DNA from: Bacteroidales bacterium
Lineage (GTDB): Bacteria > Bacteroidota > Bacteroidia > Bacteroidales > UBA3663
Direction: 5' to 3'
NCBI GenBank assembly: GCA_045598885.1
Contig: JAZRVB010000162.1
Coordinates: forward strand, 2,809-66,808
DNA: 64,000 nucleotides
The notes under the pieces were generated by a model that worked only from the letters and a program-made list of their open reading frames with translations, was not told the origin of the DNA and ran no database searches. The position numbers and the translations under genes were made by a program. Positions within the stretch are counted from its first letter, which is position 1, and the number at the start of each line of letters is the position of its first letter. This document shows, piece after piece, positions 11,422 to 64,000 of the stretch.

Positions 11422-14400
11422 ATGGGAAAATCAAAAACAACATCAGATCTGGCACAGGAATGCCGTCTGTCTGATTACTTGAAAAACAACCAAATTTCTC
11501 TCGAACTTCTTGACTCGATCAAGGAGGTCTTTACTCGTGCCAATAATATTTCCGTTGAGATTGTCTGCGTACAGAAGGAAGTCGTTCTGCACTTGACAGG
11601 TACATTCCAGGATAATGAACGCCTCAGCAAGGGTGATATGCTCGTCAAGGTCTCAGATTTTGAGCTCTGGCGTAACTCGTTGTCAGATGACTTCGAACTT
11701 GAGTTTGACCGAATGCGATTCCTGCGCCGTACAATGCTTGACAATCTGGTACGTAAGTCCCTCGATCATGAGCGATACTCTTTTATTGCTCCTATCCGAA
11801 AGACAAAGAATGTATGCACGCTACAGTATGACTTCATCAAGCTCGACGCTGAGGCAAACTTTATCCTCTGCATCAGCGAGGAAGTGACCTCATCGCTTGA
11901 ACATGATACGCTGACCGGTGGCCTCAATCGTAAGGGTCTGATGCGTGAGTTGGGTGTCAAATTTTCAACCATCACCGGTCCTGACCAGTATTCGTTGCTC
12001 TTCTTCAACATCCAGAACTTCCACCACATCAACGAGCAGTATGGTACCGAAGTAGGCGATATGGTCCTGAACACGATGTATTCGTCGATGGTCTATTCGG
12101 ACCTGCATCCGATCTCTTATGCCCGCATCGAGTCAGATAAGTTTGTCTGCTTCGTCGACAATAGGAATCTCAATTATGACTGTCTCACCAATCTTTGCCA
12201 TCAGGAGTATGTGGGCGACGATGTCAAGGTCGCCTTTACCTGTCTCTGCGGCATCTATCACATAGCGCGTGCTGATGAGTCGCCCGTCAATGCCTGTGAC
12301 TATGCCAAGACGGCCACGACCTTCATCAAGGATCGCTACCTGCAACCTTGGATGGATTTCGATCCGAGAATGCAGAAGATGGACTTCTCAGACACCGAGA
12401 TCCTCTCGATGTTCGAAGATGCTGTTGCCAACCAGGAGTTCGTCCCATTCTACCAGCCTATCGTCAATGCCAAAACCGGTCACATCGTAATGGCAGAGGC
12501 ACTTGTGCGATGGAAGTCGGCTGCCAAGGGCATGATCTCTCCGGGTGTCTTCATCCCGGTACTTGAGCATCACGGAGGCCTGTCGCGCGTCGACATGCTG
12601 ATGGAGCAGCGTATCTATGACCTGCAGCGGAAGCGTCAGGCAGAAGGTCTGCCAGTGGTCCCAGTAGACATCAACCTCTCATGGGTAGACTTTGCCGACA
12701 CACAGCTCCTGGCCCAGCTCTATGAGCATATTATGGACAAGGCATCGGACAATGACAAGGTGCGCTATGAGATCACAGAGTCGGCCTTGGCAGACATTGC
12801 CGACAACCGATACGACGTGCTAGACTTCTTCAGGGAGCATCAGGTCAAGCTGACGATCGATGACTTCGGACAGGCCTATTCGTTCGGTACGATGAAGGAC
12901 GTCGACTTCTCGATTGTCAAGATCGATAAGTCCATGATCGATCAGATCGGCACCTCGCGCAAGGCTAACCTGCTCATCGAGACCATGATCAGCATGTTCC
13001 ATAAGATGCATGCCAAGGTCGTCGCCGAGGGTGTCGAGACAGAGAAGCAGGCCAACTATCTCAAGCAGGTAGGCTGTGACTACATACAGGGTTACTACTT
13101 CTATCGTCCGATGGATGAGGAAGCCTTTGTCAAGGTCCTTGCCGAGAAGCAGATCGACCAGACGAAGGTCCAGACAGAGGAGGAGCAGGCCGTAGAGGCT
13201 TCTGCTGTCGTAGCAGCGGAGCCGGAGGAAACGACTGGTCTGAAGTCCAGGATCAAACGCGCCTTCCAGTCCATGGGAATGGTCAGGTTCGACGATCTCA
13301 AATCGACGTTCATGATCGTAGGCATCTGCGGCCTTTTGTCGGCAGTGATCTATTTCTCTACCTACCGTCTGGTATCCAATCTCGTGACCGAGAGCTGTGA
13401 CGAACTTACCTCTCGCGATATTGATAAGATCAAGCTGTACATCGACCTGGAGCTTAGTACGGCTCAGGAGGCGCTCAACGCATTCAGCATGGCTGTCTTC
13501 CAGAACGGTCTTGACATCCCTAAGTCCGAAGAGCTGATCTACGAGCAGATGGAGCGCTTCTTGTCTAATACGCCGATACTGTCGGGTGTAGTCGCAGGCT
13601 TTGAGGATGTTGTCTTCCCTGAGTATGCCGACAAGCTCGGCTTCGGTCCGCTGATCCGTCATCAGGGCGATTCGCTCGTCCGCTATCAGGTGGGAGAGAT
13701 CCGTGACTTCCGTAAGACCAAGGAGTGGTATTCTGAGTGTTACATCCAGAAGAAGCCTCGCTGGTCGGCTCCGTTCTTCTCTGAGGAGGGAGACATCATC
13801 ATCGACTATAGTATCCCGCTCATGAATGCCGAGGGAGAAGTGATCGGTGTCGTCGCTGCCGACCTTTCCATCTCACACCTGCGACAGGTCGTCGAGGATA
13901 TCAAGCCTTATCCGGCTTCTATCGTGATGATCATGCAGGAGGATCTTACCTTCGTCATCCATCCAGACAAGGGCTATCCGATGCATAAGTCGCTCCCTGT
14001 TTATCTCAAGGAGCGAGACATCGAGGCCGATCAGAATCTGCTCAATTCGCTGCAGGCAGGTGAGACGGGCAAGATGATCCTGGCACCATTGGGAGAAGAG
14101 CTCTTCCTCTACTACGACGTCATTGACAAGGCCGGATACCGCCTGCTCATCGAGAGTCAGAGTACCGATGTCTATGGTCAGCTCAATGAGATCTCAGGAG
14201 TCATGAAGAAGATCGGCTTCGGAGGCCTCGGCTTCCTCATCCTGACACTCGGCTTCATGATCTATGATAATAAGAAGCGTGAGCGCCGCACTATGGAGCA
14301 TAATATGCGAATCCTCCGTCATACGGCCGATACGGACGGCTTGACAGGCCTGAACAACCGTACTGCCGGTGAGCGCCTGATCACGCAGGCCATTGATGAG

Positions 14401-14805
14401 CGAACGCCTGGCTTCCTGGCAATCCTCGACTGTGACAAGTTCAAGCTCGTCAACGACCACTACGGCCACTCTTTTGGCGACAAGTTGCTACAGAAACTTG
14501 CTGAAGCGCTGAAGTACTGCTTCCCAGACGATATCACCATGCGACTGGGTGGCGATGAGTTTGCTATCTACTGCCTCAGCGTCAAGGATCAGGAGGCTTT
14601 CGAGGAGAAGGTCAAGGTCTTCTTCATCGAGGTCAACAACATCCGCATCGAAGGTATGGGCGACTACTCGCCATCCGTATCAATGGGTGCTGCAGAGTAT
14701 CGCGGTGAGGAAACGCTCAACTTTGATATTCTCTACCGCAGTGCAGACCGCCTGCTCTACAAGAGCAAGAACACCGAGGGCTGCATGCTGACGCTGGATG
14801 AATAA
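11422..14805 (+). CDS. multidomain c-di-GMP signalling protein: N-terminal domain, degenerate GGDEF, EAL, TM, dCache-like periplasmic sensor, TM, GGDEF
   Basis: The first cyclase-like domain has RIESDKF in place of GGDEF (12121-12147). EAL signatures are EALVRW (12495), DINLS, EITES, DDFGQAYS, KIDKS, EGVE and QGYYF. TM segments lie at about 13306-13375 and 14208-14270. The C-terminal domain has DKFKLVNDHYGH and RLGGDEFAIY (14548-14562). Confidence 0.85.
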   Translation: MGKSKTTSDLAQECRLSDYLKNNQISLELLDSIKEVFTRANNISVEIVCVQKEVVLHLTGTFQDNERLSKGDMLVKVSDFELWRNSLSDDFELEFDRMRFLRRTMLDNLVRKSLDHERYSFIAPIRKTKNVCTLQYDFIKLDAEANFILCISEEVTSSLEHDTLTGGLNRKGLMRELGVKFSTITGPDQYSLLFFNIQNFHHINEQYGTEVGDMVLNTMYSSMVYSDLHPISYARIESDKFVCFVDNRNLNYDCLTNLCHQEYVGDDVKVAFTCLCGIYHIARADESPVNACDYAKTATTFIKDRYLQPWMDFDPRMQKMDFSDTEILSMFEDAVANQEFVPFYQPIVNAKTGHIVMAEALVRWKSAAKGMISPGVFIPVLEHHGGLSRVDMLMEQRIYDLQRKRQAEGLPVVPVDINLSWVDFADTQLLAQLYEHIMDKASDNDKVRYEITESALADIADNRYDVLDFFREHQVKLTIDDFGQAYSFGTMKDVDFSIVKIDKSMIDQIGTSRKANLLIETMISMFHKMHAKVVAEGVETEKQANYLKQVGCDYIQGYYFYRPMDEEAFVKVLAEKQIDQTKVQTEEEQAVEASAVVAAEPEETTGLKSRIKRAFQSMGMVRFDDLKSTFMIVGICGLLSAVIYFSTYRLVSNLVTESCDELTSRDIDKIKLYIDLELSTAQEALNAFSMAVFQNGLDIPKSEELIYEQMERFLSNTPILSGVVAGFEDVVFPEYADKLGFGPLIRHQGDSLVRYQVGEIRDFRKTKEWYSECYIQKKPRWSAPFFSEEGDIIIDYSIPLMNAEGEVIGVVAADLSISHLRQVVEDIKPYPASIVMIMQEDLTFVIHPDKGYPMHKSLPVYLKERDIEADQNLLNSLQAGETGKMILAPLGEELFLYYDVIDKAGYRLLIESQSTDVYGQLNEISGVMKKIGFGGLGFLILTLGFMIYDNKKRERRTMEHNMRILRHTADTDGLTGLNNRTAGERLITQAIDERTPGFLAILDCDKFKLVNDHYGHSFGDKLLQKLAEALKYCFPDDITMRLGGDEFAIYCLSVKDQEAFEEKVKVFFIEVNNIRIEGMGDYSPSVSMGAAEYRGEETLNFDILYRSADRLLYKSKNTEGCMLTLDE

Positions 14806-23039: not shown

Positions 23040-23285
23040 GTTTCTTTGTTAACGTCAATAGAAGTGTCCCGTCCTGTCGATCGCAGGAGTCATGAGTGGG
23101 CGCTCTTTGCAGCAGGTCTTCTGGCTCGTCCTGGCTCGGTGTACTGTCTTCCCGCCTGTTAACATGGGCAGTGACATTCAAGGTACGTCGGCAACTAAGT
23201 AGGACACACAGCAGCGGGACTGTTCCGGATTCGCACCGGATTCCCTTTTGATCCGCACTTGGTCAGGGTGCAGAACTGCAAAGCG
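23040..23285 (-). promoter_or_regulatory. cobalamin (B12) riboswitch
   Basis: The minus strand reads AAAGGGAATCCGGTGCGAATCCGGAACAGTCCCGCTGCTGT (23207-23247) and a B12 box GAGCCAGAAGACCTGCTGCA (about 23108-23127). It lies between a TATCTTTG promoter and the receptor ATG. Confidence 0.9.
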
Positions 23286-23313
23286 AAGTGAAAAATAAGT
23301 TTTTTCAGTGGTG

Positions 23314-60694: not shown

Positions 60695-61828
60695 ATGAAA
60701 ATTTCAATACTCGGTCCCTGTTGGCCCTACCGTGGTGGCATTGCAGCCTTTAACGAACGACTTGCTCATCAGCTGCAAGCCGAAGGTCATCAAGTGTCGC
60801 TCTATACATTTACGCTTCAGTATCCAGGATTCCTTTTTCCAGGAAAAACTCAATTTAGTGAAGAATCTGCACCCTCAGATCTCCTTATTGAGCGAAAACT
60901 GTCATCGGTCAATCCTTTTACTTGGCTCTCATTAGGTCGCAAAATAAACAGCGAATGCCCTGATCTTCTCATCATTGCTTATTGGTTGCCATTCATGGCT
61001 CCAGCTTTAGGTTCGGTAGCTCGTTTGGCCAAAAAGAATGGAAAGACCAAGGTGATAGGCCTCCTGCATAATCTGATTCCTCATGAGCATCGTATTGGCG
61101 ATAAGCAGTTCAGCCGCTACTTCATCCAATCCATTGATGCTGCGCTTTCGTTGTCGAAATCGGTGCTCGATGAAATATCACTCTTCAATACCCAACTGCC
61201 TAAGGTATTTTCCCCGCATCCGCTCTATGATAATTTCGGAGAACCTGCCGATAGGGAAGAGGCTTGCAAGAAACTGAGGCTCGATCCTTCTGTCCGATAC
61301 CTGCTGTTCTTTGGTTTGATCAGGAGTTATAAGGGTTTGGATTGGTTAATCGAAGCTTGTTCAAAGAGTGAAGCTATTCTGTCTGGTAGATATAAGTTGC
61401 TCGTTGCTGGCGAGTTTTATGGCAATGAGTCTGTCTATCACGAGCTTGAGAATCGCTTGTCGCTGAATAATCATATCGAATGGCATTCTGTTTTTGTTCC
61501 TGATAGCGAAGTGCGTTACTATTTTAGCGTTGCCGATCTGATTGTTCAACCTTATAAGACAGCTTCACAGTCAGGTGTTACTCAAATAGCCTATCATTTT
61601 CAGAAGCCAATGCTTGTTACCAGGGTGGGAGGATTGCCTGAGATTGTTCCCGATGGCAAGGTCGGTTATGTTGTAGATCCTGATCCGTCTGCAATAGCTT
61701 CAGGAATTGATCGCTTTGATAAAGAAACGCCAGACTTTACCGAGGGACTTTTGTCTCAAAAGCAAAAATACAGCTGGTCGGTGATGACATCTAACTTGCA
61801 AACTCTCTATAAGAATCTTCAGAAGTAA
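60695..61828 (+). CDS. glycosyltransferase family 4 protein
   Basis: GT-B fold with the E(x7)E region GGLPEIVPDGKVGYVVD. Confidence 0.85.
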   Translation: MKISILGPCWPYRGGIAAFNERLAHQLQAEGHQVSLYTFTLQYPGFLFPGKTQFSEESAPSDLLIERKLSSVNPFTWLSLGRKINSECPDLLIIAYWLPFMAPALGSVARLAKKNGKTKVIGLLHNLIPHEHRIGDKQFSRYFIQSIDAALSLSKSVLDEISLFNTQLPKVFSPHPLYDNFGEPADREEACKKLRLDPSVRYLLFFGLIRSYKGLDWLIEACSKSEAILSGRYKLLVAGEFYGNESVYHELENRLSLNNHIEWHSVFVPDSEVRYYFSVADLIVQPYKTASQSGVTQIAYHFQKPMLVTRVGGLPEIVPDGKVGYVVDPDPSAIASGIDRFDKETPDFTEGLLSQKQKYSWSVMTSNLQTLYKNLQK

Positions 61829-61852
61829 TATTTGCTGAAAATAGTTCCGGAT

Positions 61853-62047
61853 GTCATACTTCGCGCGCATTATATGACAAAAACACTTCCGTGGTGTCAT
61901 ACTTCGCGCGCATTGTATGACAAAAACATTTCGGGGTGTCATACTTCGCGCGCATTGTATGACAAAAACATTTCGGGGTGTCATACTTCGCGCGCATTAT
62001 ATGACAAAAACATTTCGGGGTGTCATACTTCGCGCGCATTATATGAC
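61853..62047. repeat. tandem array A3: 4.6 copies of a 42-bp unit (GTCATAC, 12 nt, RTATGAC, 16 nt)
   Basis: GTCATAC occurs at 61853, 61896, 61938, 61980 and 62022. Same 7/12/7/16 geometry as arrays A1 and A2, with different 7-mers. Confidence 0.95.
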
Positions 62048-62085
62048 AAACATAAATTGAAATATAAATCTTAAAATATTGAATC

Positions 62086-62871
62086 GTGTCAGATAACACA
62101 AAACCACTTCGATCACTCGCAGACTGCGATGACGAGCATGTAAAGATACAAAGAGAGAAACTCAAATTCAATCGTACGGTCAACTGGTACGCCTGCTATG
62201 TGCATCCCCAGCACGAATTGCAGTTGCATGACTACCTCATGGGCATCGAGGTAGAGAGGAAAGGCGTACGTCGTGGCAAGGCTAAGAAAGAAGACTTGTT
62301 CGTTGAGGTCGACCCTGCCAAGATGCTCATGGAATGCTATGTCCCCGTGCAGCGCATCCGCGTCAAGCTCTCTGACCGCATGGTCTGGAAGGAGAAGGTC
62401 GTCATCCCTGGCGTCATCTTCGTTCATTGCTCGATCGATAGCCGCGAGCCTTTGTTCTATGGTAAGTATAAGGAATATGTCGTCGGCTTTATGAGCGATA
62501 AAGTTCGTCATCGTCCGCAGCCTATCCCAGATTCCGAGATGGCTACCTTCCGCGCTTTGACCGAATCGGAATATGCCTATCAGATGGAGGCACCGGAGTT
62601 CAAGCCAGGCCAGTCGGTCCTGATCCTTGCCGGTCAGCTCAAGGGTCATGTCGCTGAGCTCGTCAGCAAGAAGGAGGAGATCAGCAAGACGGAGTTCCAG
62701 ACCGATCGATATGGCAAGCCGGTGCTCGATAGCGAGGGCAATCCGATCCCTAAGCATAAGATCACGCTCTGCGTCCGCCTCACAGATATGCTTTGTGCTA
62801 AGTTCGAGGTCGATTCTGACCAGGTCAGCGTTGTGCCGAAGGGTACGAAGACGAAGATTAGTTTTGAATGA
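62086..62871 (+). CDS. NusG-like transcription antitermination protein (UpxY family)
   Basis: NGN-type WYACYVHPQHELQLHDYL and VIPGVIFV. KOW-type GQSVLILAGQLKGHVAELV followed by an insertion of about 45 aa. GTG start. Confidence 0.75.
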   Translation: MSDNTKPLRSLADCDDEHVKIQREKLKFNRTVNWYACYVHPQHELQLHDYLMGIEVERKGVRRGKAKKEDLFVEVDPAKMLMECYVPVQRIRVKLSDRMVWKEKVVIPGVIFVHCSIDSREPLFYGKYKEYVVGFMSDKVRHRPQPIPDSEMATFRALTESEYAYQMEAPEFKPGQSVLILAGQLKGHVAELVSKKEEISKTEFQTDRYGKPVLDSEGNPIPKHKITLCVRLTDMLCAKFEVDSDQVSVVPKGTKTKISFE

Positions 62872-62900
62872 TTTTATAAGATTCTTCCTTGTCAGGAAGT

Positions 62901-63222
62901 GGGGGCTCTTTTGGAGACTCTTTCCAGAGGGGGCTCTTTCCAGAGGGGACTCCTCCCAGAGGGGGCTCCTGCTCGGAGGGAGCTCCATTTCTTTGCCTTG
63001 ATGCAAAGAAGTGGAGGAAAGAAAAATCAAGGCTACGTTCCAGGAGGTTGCTCAGATTGGTCTGACTGGCAAGGAAACAAACGCAGCCTTCGGCTTTGAA
63101 CGGTGTTTCCTTGCTGGCGTCATCCTCAATCTTCGCTTTCAACCTCCTTTCACTATGCCTTTTCAACTCCCCTCGTGTCGCTCCGCTTATGCTACGCTCC
63201 TCGTCCCCTCATTCTTGAGGGG
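62901..63222 (+). repeat. element L: G-rich 16-17-bp tandem repeats, a ~225-bp structured core, and a terminal CCCCTCA/TGAGGGG hairpin
   Basis: Alignable along its whole length to the reverse complement of 63305-63672. Confidence 0.85.
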
Positions 63223-63304
63223 GTTACTATCAGCCGAAACATACTTGAGGGGGTTACTATCAGCTGAAACATACTTGAGGGGGGGGACTATCAGCTGAAA
63301 CATA
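63214..63304. repeat. three tandem 30-bp repeats (CTTGAGGGGGTTACTATCAGCYGAAACATA) at the junction of elements L and R
   Basis: Copies start at 63214, 63244 and 63274. The third copy has one extra G. Confidence 0.9.
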
Positions 63305-63672
63305 CCCCCTCAAAGATTGAGGGGACGAGGAGCGTAGCATAAGCGGAGCGACATGAGGGGAGTTGAAAGGCCATAATGCAGCAAGGCGTGAAGCAGCGCA
63401 TGGAGGATGGCGTCAGGAGCAGGCACCGTCCAAAGCCCGTAGGGCTGCGTTTGCCTGCGAGTAGTCAGACACCGTGCGATGTAGCCTTGCGGAATGTAGG
63501 CCCGACTTTTTCTCCCTCTACTCTTTTGTGTCATGGACAAAAGAGTGGAGCCCCCTCCGGGTAGGAGTCCCCTCTGGAAAGAGTCCCCTCCGGGTAGGAG
63601 TCCCCTCTGGAAAGAGCCCCTCCGGGTAGGAGCCCCCTCTGGAAAGAGCCCCTCCGGGTAGGAGAGAGTATC
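63305..63672 (-). repeat. element R: inverted, diverged copy of element L
   Basis: The 53-nt block 63318-63370 is nearly identical to the reverse complement of 63161-63213. The rest is diverged but collinear. Confidence 0.85.
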
Positions 63673-63795
63673 ATTATGCCAACTACCCATCGATAAAATA
63701 TGTTATACAACATAATTGCAATTTGTGCAACCGATTGAATTGCCGTGATAAGATAAAAAAGTGTCAAAAAATTTTGATGCTTGGCGAATTTCAAT

Positions 63796-63803
63796 TATCT
63801 TTG
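63796..63803 (+). promoter_or_regulatory. -7 promoter box (TATCTTTG) for ppdK
   Basis: TAnnTTTG about 130 nt upstream of the ATG at 63933. Confidence 0.45.
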
Positions 63804-63932
63804 CGCTCCGTAACACAAGACCATATAAATAGCATTTATATATTAATGAAGAAGCGTCAGGACTCTCCCTGGCGGCCAATCATAGTGATGAATTATACAT
63901 AACTTAAATCAATCAAACACTGTTTTTTCACT

Positions 63933-64000
63933 ATGGCAGAAAACAAAAAACGCGTTTATACCTTTGGTAACGGTAAGGCTGAAGGTAATGCAAACATGCG
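63933..64000 (+). CDS. ppdK: pyruvate, phosphate dikinase, first 22 codons (continues beyond the window)
   Basis: MAENKKRVYTFGNGKAEGNANM matches the conserved PPDK N-terminus (KRVYxFGxGKAEGN). Confidence 0.7.
   Translation, partial: MAENKKRVYTFGNGKAEGNANM

Follow-up and report, generated by a model that had tools for sequence, protein, structure and literature searches.

What is the 0.8-kb block that separates a NusG/UpxY-like gene from a pyruvate phosphate dikinase (PPDK) gene in an uncultured gut-type member of the Bacteroidales, and to what kind of genetic element does it belong? The locus lies towards the right-hand end of a 64,000-nt stretch of contig JAZRVB010000162.1 (hereafter the window, in whose numbering all coordinates are given unless another contig is named). 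Our answer is that the block at 62872-63690 is a lineage-restricted non-coding insertion that consists of two inverted, tail-to-tail copies of a ~300-nt modular repeat. It is a real non-coding structured element, and its family is unmatched in the libraries that we searched. The reading that we favour, with about even confidence, is that it represents a new low-copy family of modular structured intergenic repeats of the BOX/ERIC/BrickBuilt kind, mobile or once mobile, arranged here as a recombining inverted doublet.

That the block is an insertion follows from comparison with its relatives. Orthologous loci were gathered via homologues of the NusG-like protein, and the block is absent from 18 of the 21 NusG-like-to-PPDK loci, which come from several lineages. 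The three that bear it are the window and two related metagenomic contigs, JAZQQH010000052.1 (L017) and a Logan contig (L055). The empty loci (L003-L013 and L040-L048, minus two entries without DNA) encode NusG-like proteins of 76-89% identity and keep the gene order GT2, YfhO, GT4, NusG-like and then PPDK, with some contigs stopping short of PPDK. Their intergenic gap, where complete, measures 210-315 bp, versus 1062 bp in the window. In blastn comparisons with five of them (L004, L011, L040, L042, and L045), similarity ends at 62849-62860; it restarts at 63690-63695 in L011, L040, and L042, and only at ~63838 in L004 and L045. Because similarity to the empty loci breaks at ~62855 and returns at ~63692, at a conserved palindrome, the block is a ~820-bp non-coding insertion between the NusG-like stop codon and that palindrome. 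By its position it would lie in the 3' untranslated region (UTR) of the upstream NusG-like gene, and the palindrome was probably, before the insertion, either the terminator of that gene or an operator for PPDK. The start of PPDK was placed at ~63934 from its N-terminal sequence and from longer orthologous open reading frames (ORFs). The left junctions of the insertion differ among the window, L017, and L055.

How is the insertion built? Aligned with MAFFT, the left arm (L, 62884-63223, plus strand) and the right arm (R, 63305-63672, minus strand) are inverted copies that are collinear from end to end, as a preliminary description of this locus had proposed. From the outside inwards, both contain 16-17-nt tandem units, a 14-bp hairpin 1, a purine-rich linker, a ~135-nt hairpin 2, a C-rich block, and hairpin 3 (Table 1). 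A repeat search recovered an inner arm pair of 76 nt (63151-63226 and 63303-63378) that is 88% complementary, together with several outer arm pairs. Tandem Repeats Finder (TRF) assigns the L units a period of 16 (62918-62986, 3.2-3.9 copies) and the R units a period of 32 in 3.5 copies, which corresponds to about seven units of 16-17 nt (63552-63664, 97% matches). Each 16-nt unit of L is itself a 4-bp mini-hairpin with a flanking G run. Between the arms lies a 30-bp array (score 155, 92% matches), each unit of which opens with the 3' half of hairpin 3. The two arms are 79% identical in the repeats, 72% in hairpin 1 and the linker, 65% in the hairpin 2 core, and 91% in the 3' block and hairpin 3. 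Within the window, a 27-mer of the conserved block and a two-unit repeat pattern are confined to both arms, with zero occurrences expected from shuffles.

Most of what the preliminary description had reported about this architecture holds. The stems that it quoted all lie where it had placed them, its estimate that the cores differ at about one third of positions agrees with the identity given above, and the terminal hairpin CCCCTCA-n4/5-TGAGGGG is present in both arms and conserved in all arms aligned. Two points need adjustment: the tandem units, put at about five G-rich repeats of 16-17 bp per arm, are there (~4-5 in L and ~7 in R) but are only mildly G-rich, with 32 G versus 24 C in the 87 nt of L repeats, and the near-identical 53-nt block is real but had been placed 2 nt out of register (it spans about 63159-63211 versus 63318-63370). 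Overlooked were the 30-bp central array, the insertion status, an inversion of the interior between genomes, and a long-range helix, P1, that closes each arm.

Is the fold of each arm maintained? Against dinucleotide shuffles, the fold z-scores are -6.6 for window L, -2.9 for window R, and -8.2 for the left arm of L017, and all arms share a predicted closing helix, hairpin 1, unpaired linker, hairpin 2, and hairpin 3. The closing helix P1 pairs the last G unit (GAGGGGG) with CTCCCCTC of the 3' block; it shows no covariation because it is invariant in all five arms. Covariation was assessed on those five arms, taken from three genomes and representing three core types, with a MAFFT alignment that was not fitted to structure and an RNAalifold consensus of 75 pairs; with five sequences of three core types the statistical power is limited. 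Changes on both sides that keep the pair occur in 25 of the 75 pairs, against 10.8 +/- 2.2 in shuffles (none of 500 reached 25) and 1-6 after displacing the partner by 1-3 columns. Similarly, 92.3% of the cells form a standard pair, against 83.6% in shuffles and 44-56% with the partner slid by 1-3 columns. Of the compensated pairs, five fall among the 14 of hairpin 1, and the others lie along the lower and middle stem of hairpin 2; there is hardly any variation in the closing helix, the hairpin 2 apex, or hairpin 3. As modelled here, the fold appears to be kept while the sequence changes, in agreement with the earlier proposal that pairing is preserved through change.

The three core types differ chiefly in hairpin 2. 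Type a comprises window L, the right arm of L017, the left arm of L055, and the visible part of a further copy, L039, described below; type b is window R and type c the left arm of L017. Hairpin 2 of window L combines an invariant apex, CAAACGCAGCC-n-GGCTTTGRACGGTG, with a variable lower stem, and that of window R resembles type a in architecture and apex but has a different lower stem. Types b and c also share the apex and have different lower stems, each of which is self-complementary. Please note that Watson-Crick covariation is blind to strand and to molecule type, and that both strands fold equally well. Counts of G-U cells (18) and A-C cells (10) would favour the strand of the G units (the G-strand), but the difference is too weak for a strand call, with half of the 18 coming from two invariant pairs.

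Table 1. Parts of the paired element and its immediate flanks, in window coordinates.
Feature	Position	Strand	Basis
Whole insertion relative to element-free orthologous loci, ~820 bp	62872..63690	.	blastn versus empty loci, gap sizes
NusG/UpxY-like gene, left flank	62086..62871	+	Pfam PF02357, E = 2.7e-09
Outer mini-hairpin CTTCCT-tgtc-AGGAAG, left end of insertion	62884..62899	+	Read from sequence
L arm repeats, ~4-5 tandem 16-nt units (GGGGCTCTTTCCAGAG type)	62900..62982	+	TRF, repeat family D3
5' strand of closing helix P1 (GAGGGAG), partner 63167-63174	62976..62982	+	Minimum free energy folds, RNAalifold consensus
L hairpin 1, 14-bp stem CTCCATTTCTTTGC / GCAAAGAAGTGGAG, 6-nt loop	62983..63016	+	5 of 14 pairs changed on both sides; 97% of cells paired
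Linker GAAAGAAAAATC, purine-rich, single-stranded, conserved	63017..63028	+	Unpaired in every fold; conserved in alignment
L hairpin 2, type a, long imperfect hairpin	63029..63161	+	Covariance-model match 63027-63163, 146.8 bits
L C-rich conserved 3' block	63162..63204	+	Contains P1 3' strand CTCCCCTC (63167-63174); 11-nt indel within 63183-63194
L terminal hairpin 3, CCCCTCA-ttct-TGAGGGGG	63205..63223	+	Conserved in all arms
Centre, 30-bp tandem array x3.2 (CTTGAGGGGGTTACTATCAGCYGAAACATA)	63210..63305	.	TRF; family D4, inverted repeats I10, I11
R terminal hairpin 3	63305..63324	-	Read from sequence
R C-rich conserved 3' block, same 11-nt indel (within 63335-63346)	63325..63366	-	Alignment with L
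R hairpin 2, type b	63367..63506	-	Covariance-model match 63366-63505, 120.4 bits; 65% identical to L core
R hairpin 1 (CTCCACTCTTTTGT / ACAAAAGAGTAGAG)	63516..63550	-	Inverted repeat I15; compensatory changes versus L hairpin 1
R arm repeats, ~7 tandem 16-17-nt units, alternating CCCCTCCGGGTAGGAG / CCCCTCTGGAAAGAG read on + strand	63551..63672	-	TRF; families D2, D5
AT-rich palindrome (AAAATATGTTnnACAACATnnTT), right flank	63695..63717	+	In every relative, with or without element, after NusG-like stop codon

Does the element encode a protein, or belong to a known RNA family? A protein-coding reading is excluded by the spread of changes over codon phases, stop codons, indels, and the absence of homologues and Pfam domains, and the preliminary description had likewise seen no protein-like conservation. 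The three type-a arms differ from one another by substitutions distributed 15/14/9 across the codon phases, the indels are 1, 2, and 11 nt long, and stops occur in every frame. A search of 5.8 billion clusters returned no homologue of the 126-aa ORF that runs through R; for the 95-aa ORF in type a, 1.84 billion representatives yielded only two weak matches, which we judged to be chance, and none of seven element ORFs carries a Pfam domain. Searched across the whole window with Rfam 15 at gathering thresholds, the element is unmatched, as are L017 and L055; at E <= 10 on 61500-64000, the best match is mir-296, with 23 bits versus a threshold of 66, and there is no HEARO or omega-RNA match. ARAGORN found no tRNA or tmRNA. 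Rfam thus explains none of the element, which the preliminary description had also been unable to assign to any RNA family. Matches to TAnnTTTG, the Bacteroidetes -7 box, occur in this region only at the PPDK promoter (63796) and as TAGTTTTG within the final codons of the NusG-like gene (in the window and in L017, 14 nt upstream of the insertion); none occurs inside the element on either strand or upstream of the G-strand of the R arm. Because no promoter motif lies inside it, the element would be transcribed, if at all, within the 3' UTR of the upstream gene.

Some candidates with a similar layout were considered and dropped. A retron msr-msd is also built from a closing helix, a short hairpin, and a long variable hairpin, but the window contains no reverse-transcriptase domain, and L017 has no extra gene between the NusG-like gene and PPDK. 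A type III antitoxin array, an iteron origin, and attC were set aside on the absence from the window of their partner genes (ToxN-like, Rep, and IntI).

How widespread is the element? A degenerate two-unit repeat pattern, scanned against 185,579 species genomes, returned 26 stretches, of which two are real relatives, both in Bacteroidales metagenome-assembled genomes (L017 and L039); the other 24, single matches in non-Bacteroidales genomes, were judged to be chance. L017 carries the pair at the same site, with its left arm at 1020-1316 and its right arm at 1531-1850, and has at both outer ends the motif CTTCC-n-GGAAG, as in the mini-hairpin at the left end of the window pair. In L039 (JAZRXZ010000017.1), an arm lies at a different locus, adjoining a DUF6486 small protein, an Amidase_2 gene, and DUF4494; this arm is incomplete, reaching the edge of the stored stretch, and it is the visible part that is of type a. 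L055 is the third orthologous copy, in which the left arm is seen and the contig ends inside hairpin 3; its NusG-like gene is 91.7% identical to that of L017. The exact 20-mer of the conserved block was found in neither genome contigs nor viral contigs, and its two occurrences in metagenome contigs lie inside coding sequence and are chance. Patterns for the hairpin 2 apex, the 3' block, hairpin 1 with the linker, and the repeats had 0 matches in viral contigs, and blastn against plasmid and phage collections gave no match. Homologues of the DUF4494 neighbour in L039 sit on contigs with a different upstream context, from which the element is absent. The family is real but rare in the collections searched, and the related arms in L017, L055, and L039 agree with the earlier suggestion of a family of diverged, structured, non-coding elements.

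Some observations on these relatives can be recorded here. The centre of the L017 pair (1317-1530) is 215 bp long and unrelated to the 30-bp array of the window; neither Pfam nor Rfam matches it, and it folds moderately well together with the flanking hairpin 3 halves (z = -3.9), and a cargo remnant and filler are both candidates for it. The L017 NusG-like protein belongs to a 20-member cluster (P0175-P0188) with more than 50 contigs of up to 25 kb, and the DUF6486 protein beside the L039 arm (P0189) is encoded on a 50,891-bp contig.

What has happened to the arms since their arrival? The left arm of L055 matches the right arm of L017 in inverted orientation, with 93% identity over 233 nt, and the left arm of L017 with 68%; for the L arm of the window the corresponding values are 83% and 72%. 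From hairpin 1 to the 3' block, window L shows identities of 89% (right arm of L017) and 87% (left arm of L055). Because the arm that lies at the left in the window and L055 matches the right arm in L017, the interior is inverted between close relatives. Crossing over probably took place in the outer repeats, where a 36-nt stretch is identical in the left arm of L055 and the right arm of L017. In addition, modules have been shuffled, since hairpin 1 variants and core types occur in differing combinations across the arms. Conversion between the arms of a genome homogenises the inner block, as shown by an 11-nt indel that both window arms have in common and that is absent from both L017 arms and from L055. 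The number of tandem units differs in every arm and genome.

Alongside this turnover, one arm has changed slowly. The type-a arms of the window and L017 are 89% identical, versus 59% at the third positions of identical codons in the adjacent gene; between L017 and L055 the values are 92.5% and 82%. Since the type-a arms are more conserved than the third codon positions next to them, the comparison points to purifying selection on type a. The second arm (window R versus L017 L) is 63% identical. More recent exchange is an alternative to selection, because the window and L017 are 99.4% identical over 163 nt in the PPDK 5' region (63838-64000 versus L017 2090-2251), against 79% in the NusG-like gene that lies 1 kb upstream. 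This near-identity would reflect either a recent recombination tract or extreme constraint.

Which known elements does the insertion resemble? Compared by description, not by sequence, the BrickBuilt/PgRS elements of Porphyromonas gingivalis would be its nearest described relatives in host and layout, and we found nothing else comparable in the literature. BrickBuilt (MITEPgRS, MITE464) is non-coding and always intergenic and consists of a ~300-nt leader, a minisatellite, and a ~300-nt tail. Its leader differs from its tail in sequence, it has 12-nt terminal repeats of the IS5 type (GAGACCTTTGCA), and each genome carries 10-20 copies of it (PMC4596501). Our element shares with it a Bacteroidales host, an intergenic and non-coding nature, a variable repeat number, and a restricted host range. 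The internal arrays have units of 23 or 41 nt in BrickBuilt and of 30 nt (centre) and 16 nt (arms) here. Unlike BrickBuilt, the two sides of our element are inverted copies, there is no IS5-type terminus, the copy number is apparently 1-2, and pairing within each arm is compensatory.

The BOX elements of Streptococcus pneumoniae are modular, with boxA, a variable number of boxB, and boxC. Together with the ERIC/IRU elements of enterobacteria, they are co-transcribed in untranslated regions, strongly folded, and of unknown mobilising enzyme, with lengths of 100-200 nt and tens to hundreds of copies per genome; ERIC copies are reported to evolve with compensatory substitutions. The element described here is likewise modular and strongly folded but differs in its ~300-nt unit, its rarity, and its arrangement as an inverted doublet with a spacer. 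Foldback-type transposons of eukaryotes have long terminal inverted repeats built from short tandem repeats, and our element resembles them in that its outer arms are tandem arrays, its middle is variable, and its interior is prone to inversion and rearrangement; unlike in Foldback, selection here would act on pairing within arms and not between them. We know of no bacterial Foldback-type family.

The points that we count for a repeat family are the insertion status, the second genomic context, the mosaic modules, the unstable minisatellites, and the lack of a promoter of its own. As for miniature inverted-repeat transposable elements, the element is present or absent at orthologous sites (18 absent and 3 present), and a copy lies at an unrelated locus (L039). 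As for BOX and ERIC, a modular non-coding unit with a variable tandem module lies between a stop codon and a downstream palindrome, where transcription is presumed, and a stable fold is conserved via compensatory change in five arms of three core types. That most orthologous loci lack the block fits the mobile origin suggested in the preliminary description. The element came in between the NusG-like stop codon and the downstream palindrome of that gene, and its later behaviour is that of a quasi-palindrome undergoing recombination. The interior is inverted and the cores are swapped, probably by crossing over in the outer repeats, conversion near the centre homogenises the inner block within each genome, and the minisatellite parts grow and shrink. 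What is preserved may be the single-strand fold of each arm. The folded strand could be RNA, made if the element is co-transcribed with the NusG-like gene as part of its 3' UTR; alternatively, it could be single-stranded DNA on which some mobilising or replication-associated protein acts.

It is important to remember that several observations weigh against a repeat family. Comparing filled and empty sites by eye, neither a target-site duplication nor a transposase-type terminal inverted repeat can be defined at the outer ends. Copy number looks very low, with one matching locus each in L017 and L039 in the genome scan, and neither nhmmer nor an unfiltered covariance-model search with hairpin 2 detected further copies in the window beyond the two arms. 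Mobility would rest on few events, since the independent genomic contexts number only two. Among the 46 ORFs of at least 120 aa in the window, Pfam identified no transposase, integrase, RAYT, TnpA, TnpB, or reverse transcriptase. The argument from conservation is weakened in that local recombination between the window and L017 lineages seems to have occurred. Finally, a functional RNA gene would account no less well for the conserved internal loops and for conservation that exceeds that of synonymous sites.

Could each arm then be the gene for a new ~300-nt structured RNA? On this account, which we consider doubtful, the RNA would be read from the G-strand. It would comprise the repeat units, hairpins 1 and 2 enclosed by the GAGGGGG/CTCCCCTC helix, and, as its terminator, the GC-rich hairpin 3; the arms would be two paralogues, and type a would be both the conserved one and the functional one. 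Covariation in 25 of 75 pairs, the invariant internal loops and linker, a type-a arm that changes more slowly than synonymous sites, and the lack of coding signal all agree with it, as do the slight excess of G-U cells and the -7 box match just upstream of the insertion. The same -7 box is, however, missing inside the element and upstream of the G-strand of R, both strands fold equally well, type a stands in opposite orientations relative to the flanks among genomes, and the terminal hairpin has no clear U-tract. In a read-through transcript, moreover, the most stable fold is an inter-arm duplex of 277 pairs (-502.7 versus about -318 kcal/mol for separate folds), so that the arms would pair with one another. 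Absence from Rfam, near-absence from the public data searched, and the poor conservation of the second arm also count against an RNA gene. If the locus were instead an inert quasi-palindrome, an inverted duplication made by template switching at the terminal hairpin, the compensation would be mutational (template switch and conversion) and not selected. Imperfect hairpins are known to acquire paired substitutions by template switching, and the inner block homogenised in each genome (11-nt indel included), the inversion and module shuffling, and the unstable tandem arrays are all what such a process would leave. We nevertheless regard it as improbable, with three core types that have diverged throughout the lower stem of a 135-nt hairpin and yet keep both length and pairing, with an unpaired linker and internal loops conserved beyond what a pairing-restoring mutational bias would do, and with an arm at an unrelated locus in another genome.

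The inversion itself invites a further explanation, in which the block is a programmed switch whose flips exchange the core (a, or b/c) behind the NusG-like gene, or reorient the centre, for a phase-variable output. Like the invertons of Bacteroidales, it is a segment flanked by inverted repeats and found in both orientations among related genomes; by the geometry of the repeats, the left position keeps an arm with a sense G-strand after any flip, and several metagenomic contigs break at or in the element, as L055 does. Known invertons, however, have short inverted repeats of tens of bp that enclose a promoter, and they need a recombinase, whether nearby or global. Here arms of ~300 bp would invert through ordinary homologous recombination, no site-specific recombinase gene was found in the window or the examined flanks, and the centre has no promoter motif and is not conserved (76 bp versus an unrelated 215 bp), which makes such a switch highly improbable. 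A combined version, in which the arms are genes for an undescribed class of ~300-nt structured RNA in an invertible two-cassette locus (an "RNA shufflon"), we hold, as a joint proposition, to be quite improbable. It would comprise a conserved multi-helix scaffold, a hypervariable compensated stem, and a 16-nt mini-hairpin array, and inter-arm recombination would swap which variant (a, or b/c) lies in sense behind a fixed upstream transcription unit. The preliminary description had itself proposed a REP/BIME element mobilised by RAYT, or an IS200/IS605-derived PATE with a core like an omega RNA (guide RNA), and these are the proposals that fared worst: we see very little chance that either is right. 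The likenesses are that each arm bears hairpins at both ends and is non-coding, that two inverted copies surround a short spacer as in a REPIN or BIME, with mosaic structure and alternating orientations, that PATEs and TnpB/IscB omega RNAs also have a hairpin-bearing, structured, non-coding core of a few hundred nt, and that, in the central repeats, hairpin 3 is followed by TTAC, which we take to be the IS608 target tetranucleotide. A REP unit measures 20-40 nt, is highly repeated, and is RAYT-associated, whereas the present unit is ten times that length (~300 nt) with three kinds of hairpin, and occurs as two arms in 64 kb and at one locus per matching genome, with no RAYT in the window. Similarly, no Y1 transposase (TnpA) or TnpB gene lies in the 64 kb, no HEARO, omega RNA, or other transposon-associated RNA is matched in Rfam even at E <= 10, and the outer hairpin (CTTCC-n-GGAAG) and the inner hairpin (CCCCTCA-n-TGAGGGG) are unrelated in sequence. 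A PATE would instead carry similar subterminal hairpins on one strand at its two ends, would lack a terminal inverted repeat, and would sit 3' of a fixed tetra- or pentanucleotide, whereas the left junctions vary among the window, L017, and L055.

Other features of the neighbourhood may be of use to those who work on this genome. In the gap between GT4 and the NusG-like gene, the window has a 42-bp array in five copies (61838-62050, 93% matches), each unit of which carries a TGTCATA...TATGACA hairpin; the same gap is only ~40 bp in relatives and holds a CTAACT-type microsatellite in L017 (L017:181-215). Minisatellites seem to expand readily in the intergenic DNA of this lineage. On the other side, the PPDK 5' leader (63838-63933) is conserved in the five distinct relatives extracted and contains AATGAAGAAGCGTCRGG-loop-CCYGGCGGCCAATCATAGTGAT, a GC hairpin with one compensatory change (CGGG/CCCG to CAGG/CCTG). 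Because CATAGTGA in this leader is complementary to TCACTATG at the start codon, the leader is a candidate cis-regulatory element; it has no Rfam match. Elsewhere in the window, the sole Rfam match at gathering thresholds is a cobalamin riboswitch (23094-23295, minus strand, 106 bits) upstream of a cluster of TonB-dependent receptor, DUF5074, DUF4465, and ABC-type uptake genes. At 11422-14805 (plus strand), a 1127-aa protein has EAL, GGDEF, and dCache-like sensor domains; to our knowledge, cyclic-di-GMP signalling proteins are uncommon in gut Bacteroidales.

What would a repeat family of this kind mean? The locus is a clear case of a 0.8-kb non-coding insertion that has long been kept, with one arm changing more slowly than synonymous sites and with stems replaced wholesale while their pairing is kept. 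There are practical consequences for those who assemble and annotate such genomes: quasi-palindromes of this type break metagenomic assemblies, as in L055, where the contig ends inside the terminal hairpin, and they are prone to mis-called ORFs, such as the 126-aa ORF through arm R. The element also raises the question of what recognises a ~300-nt fold that carries a 16-nt repeat array. If the repeat-family reading is right, the structured intergenic repeats of bacteria, which form a small set, would gain a new family, and it would be one of the few such families described in the uncultured, Prevotella-like Bacteroidales of animal guts.

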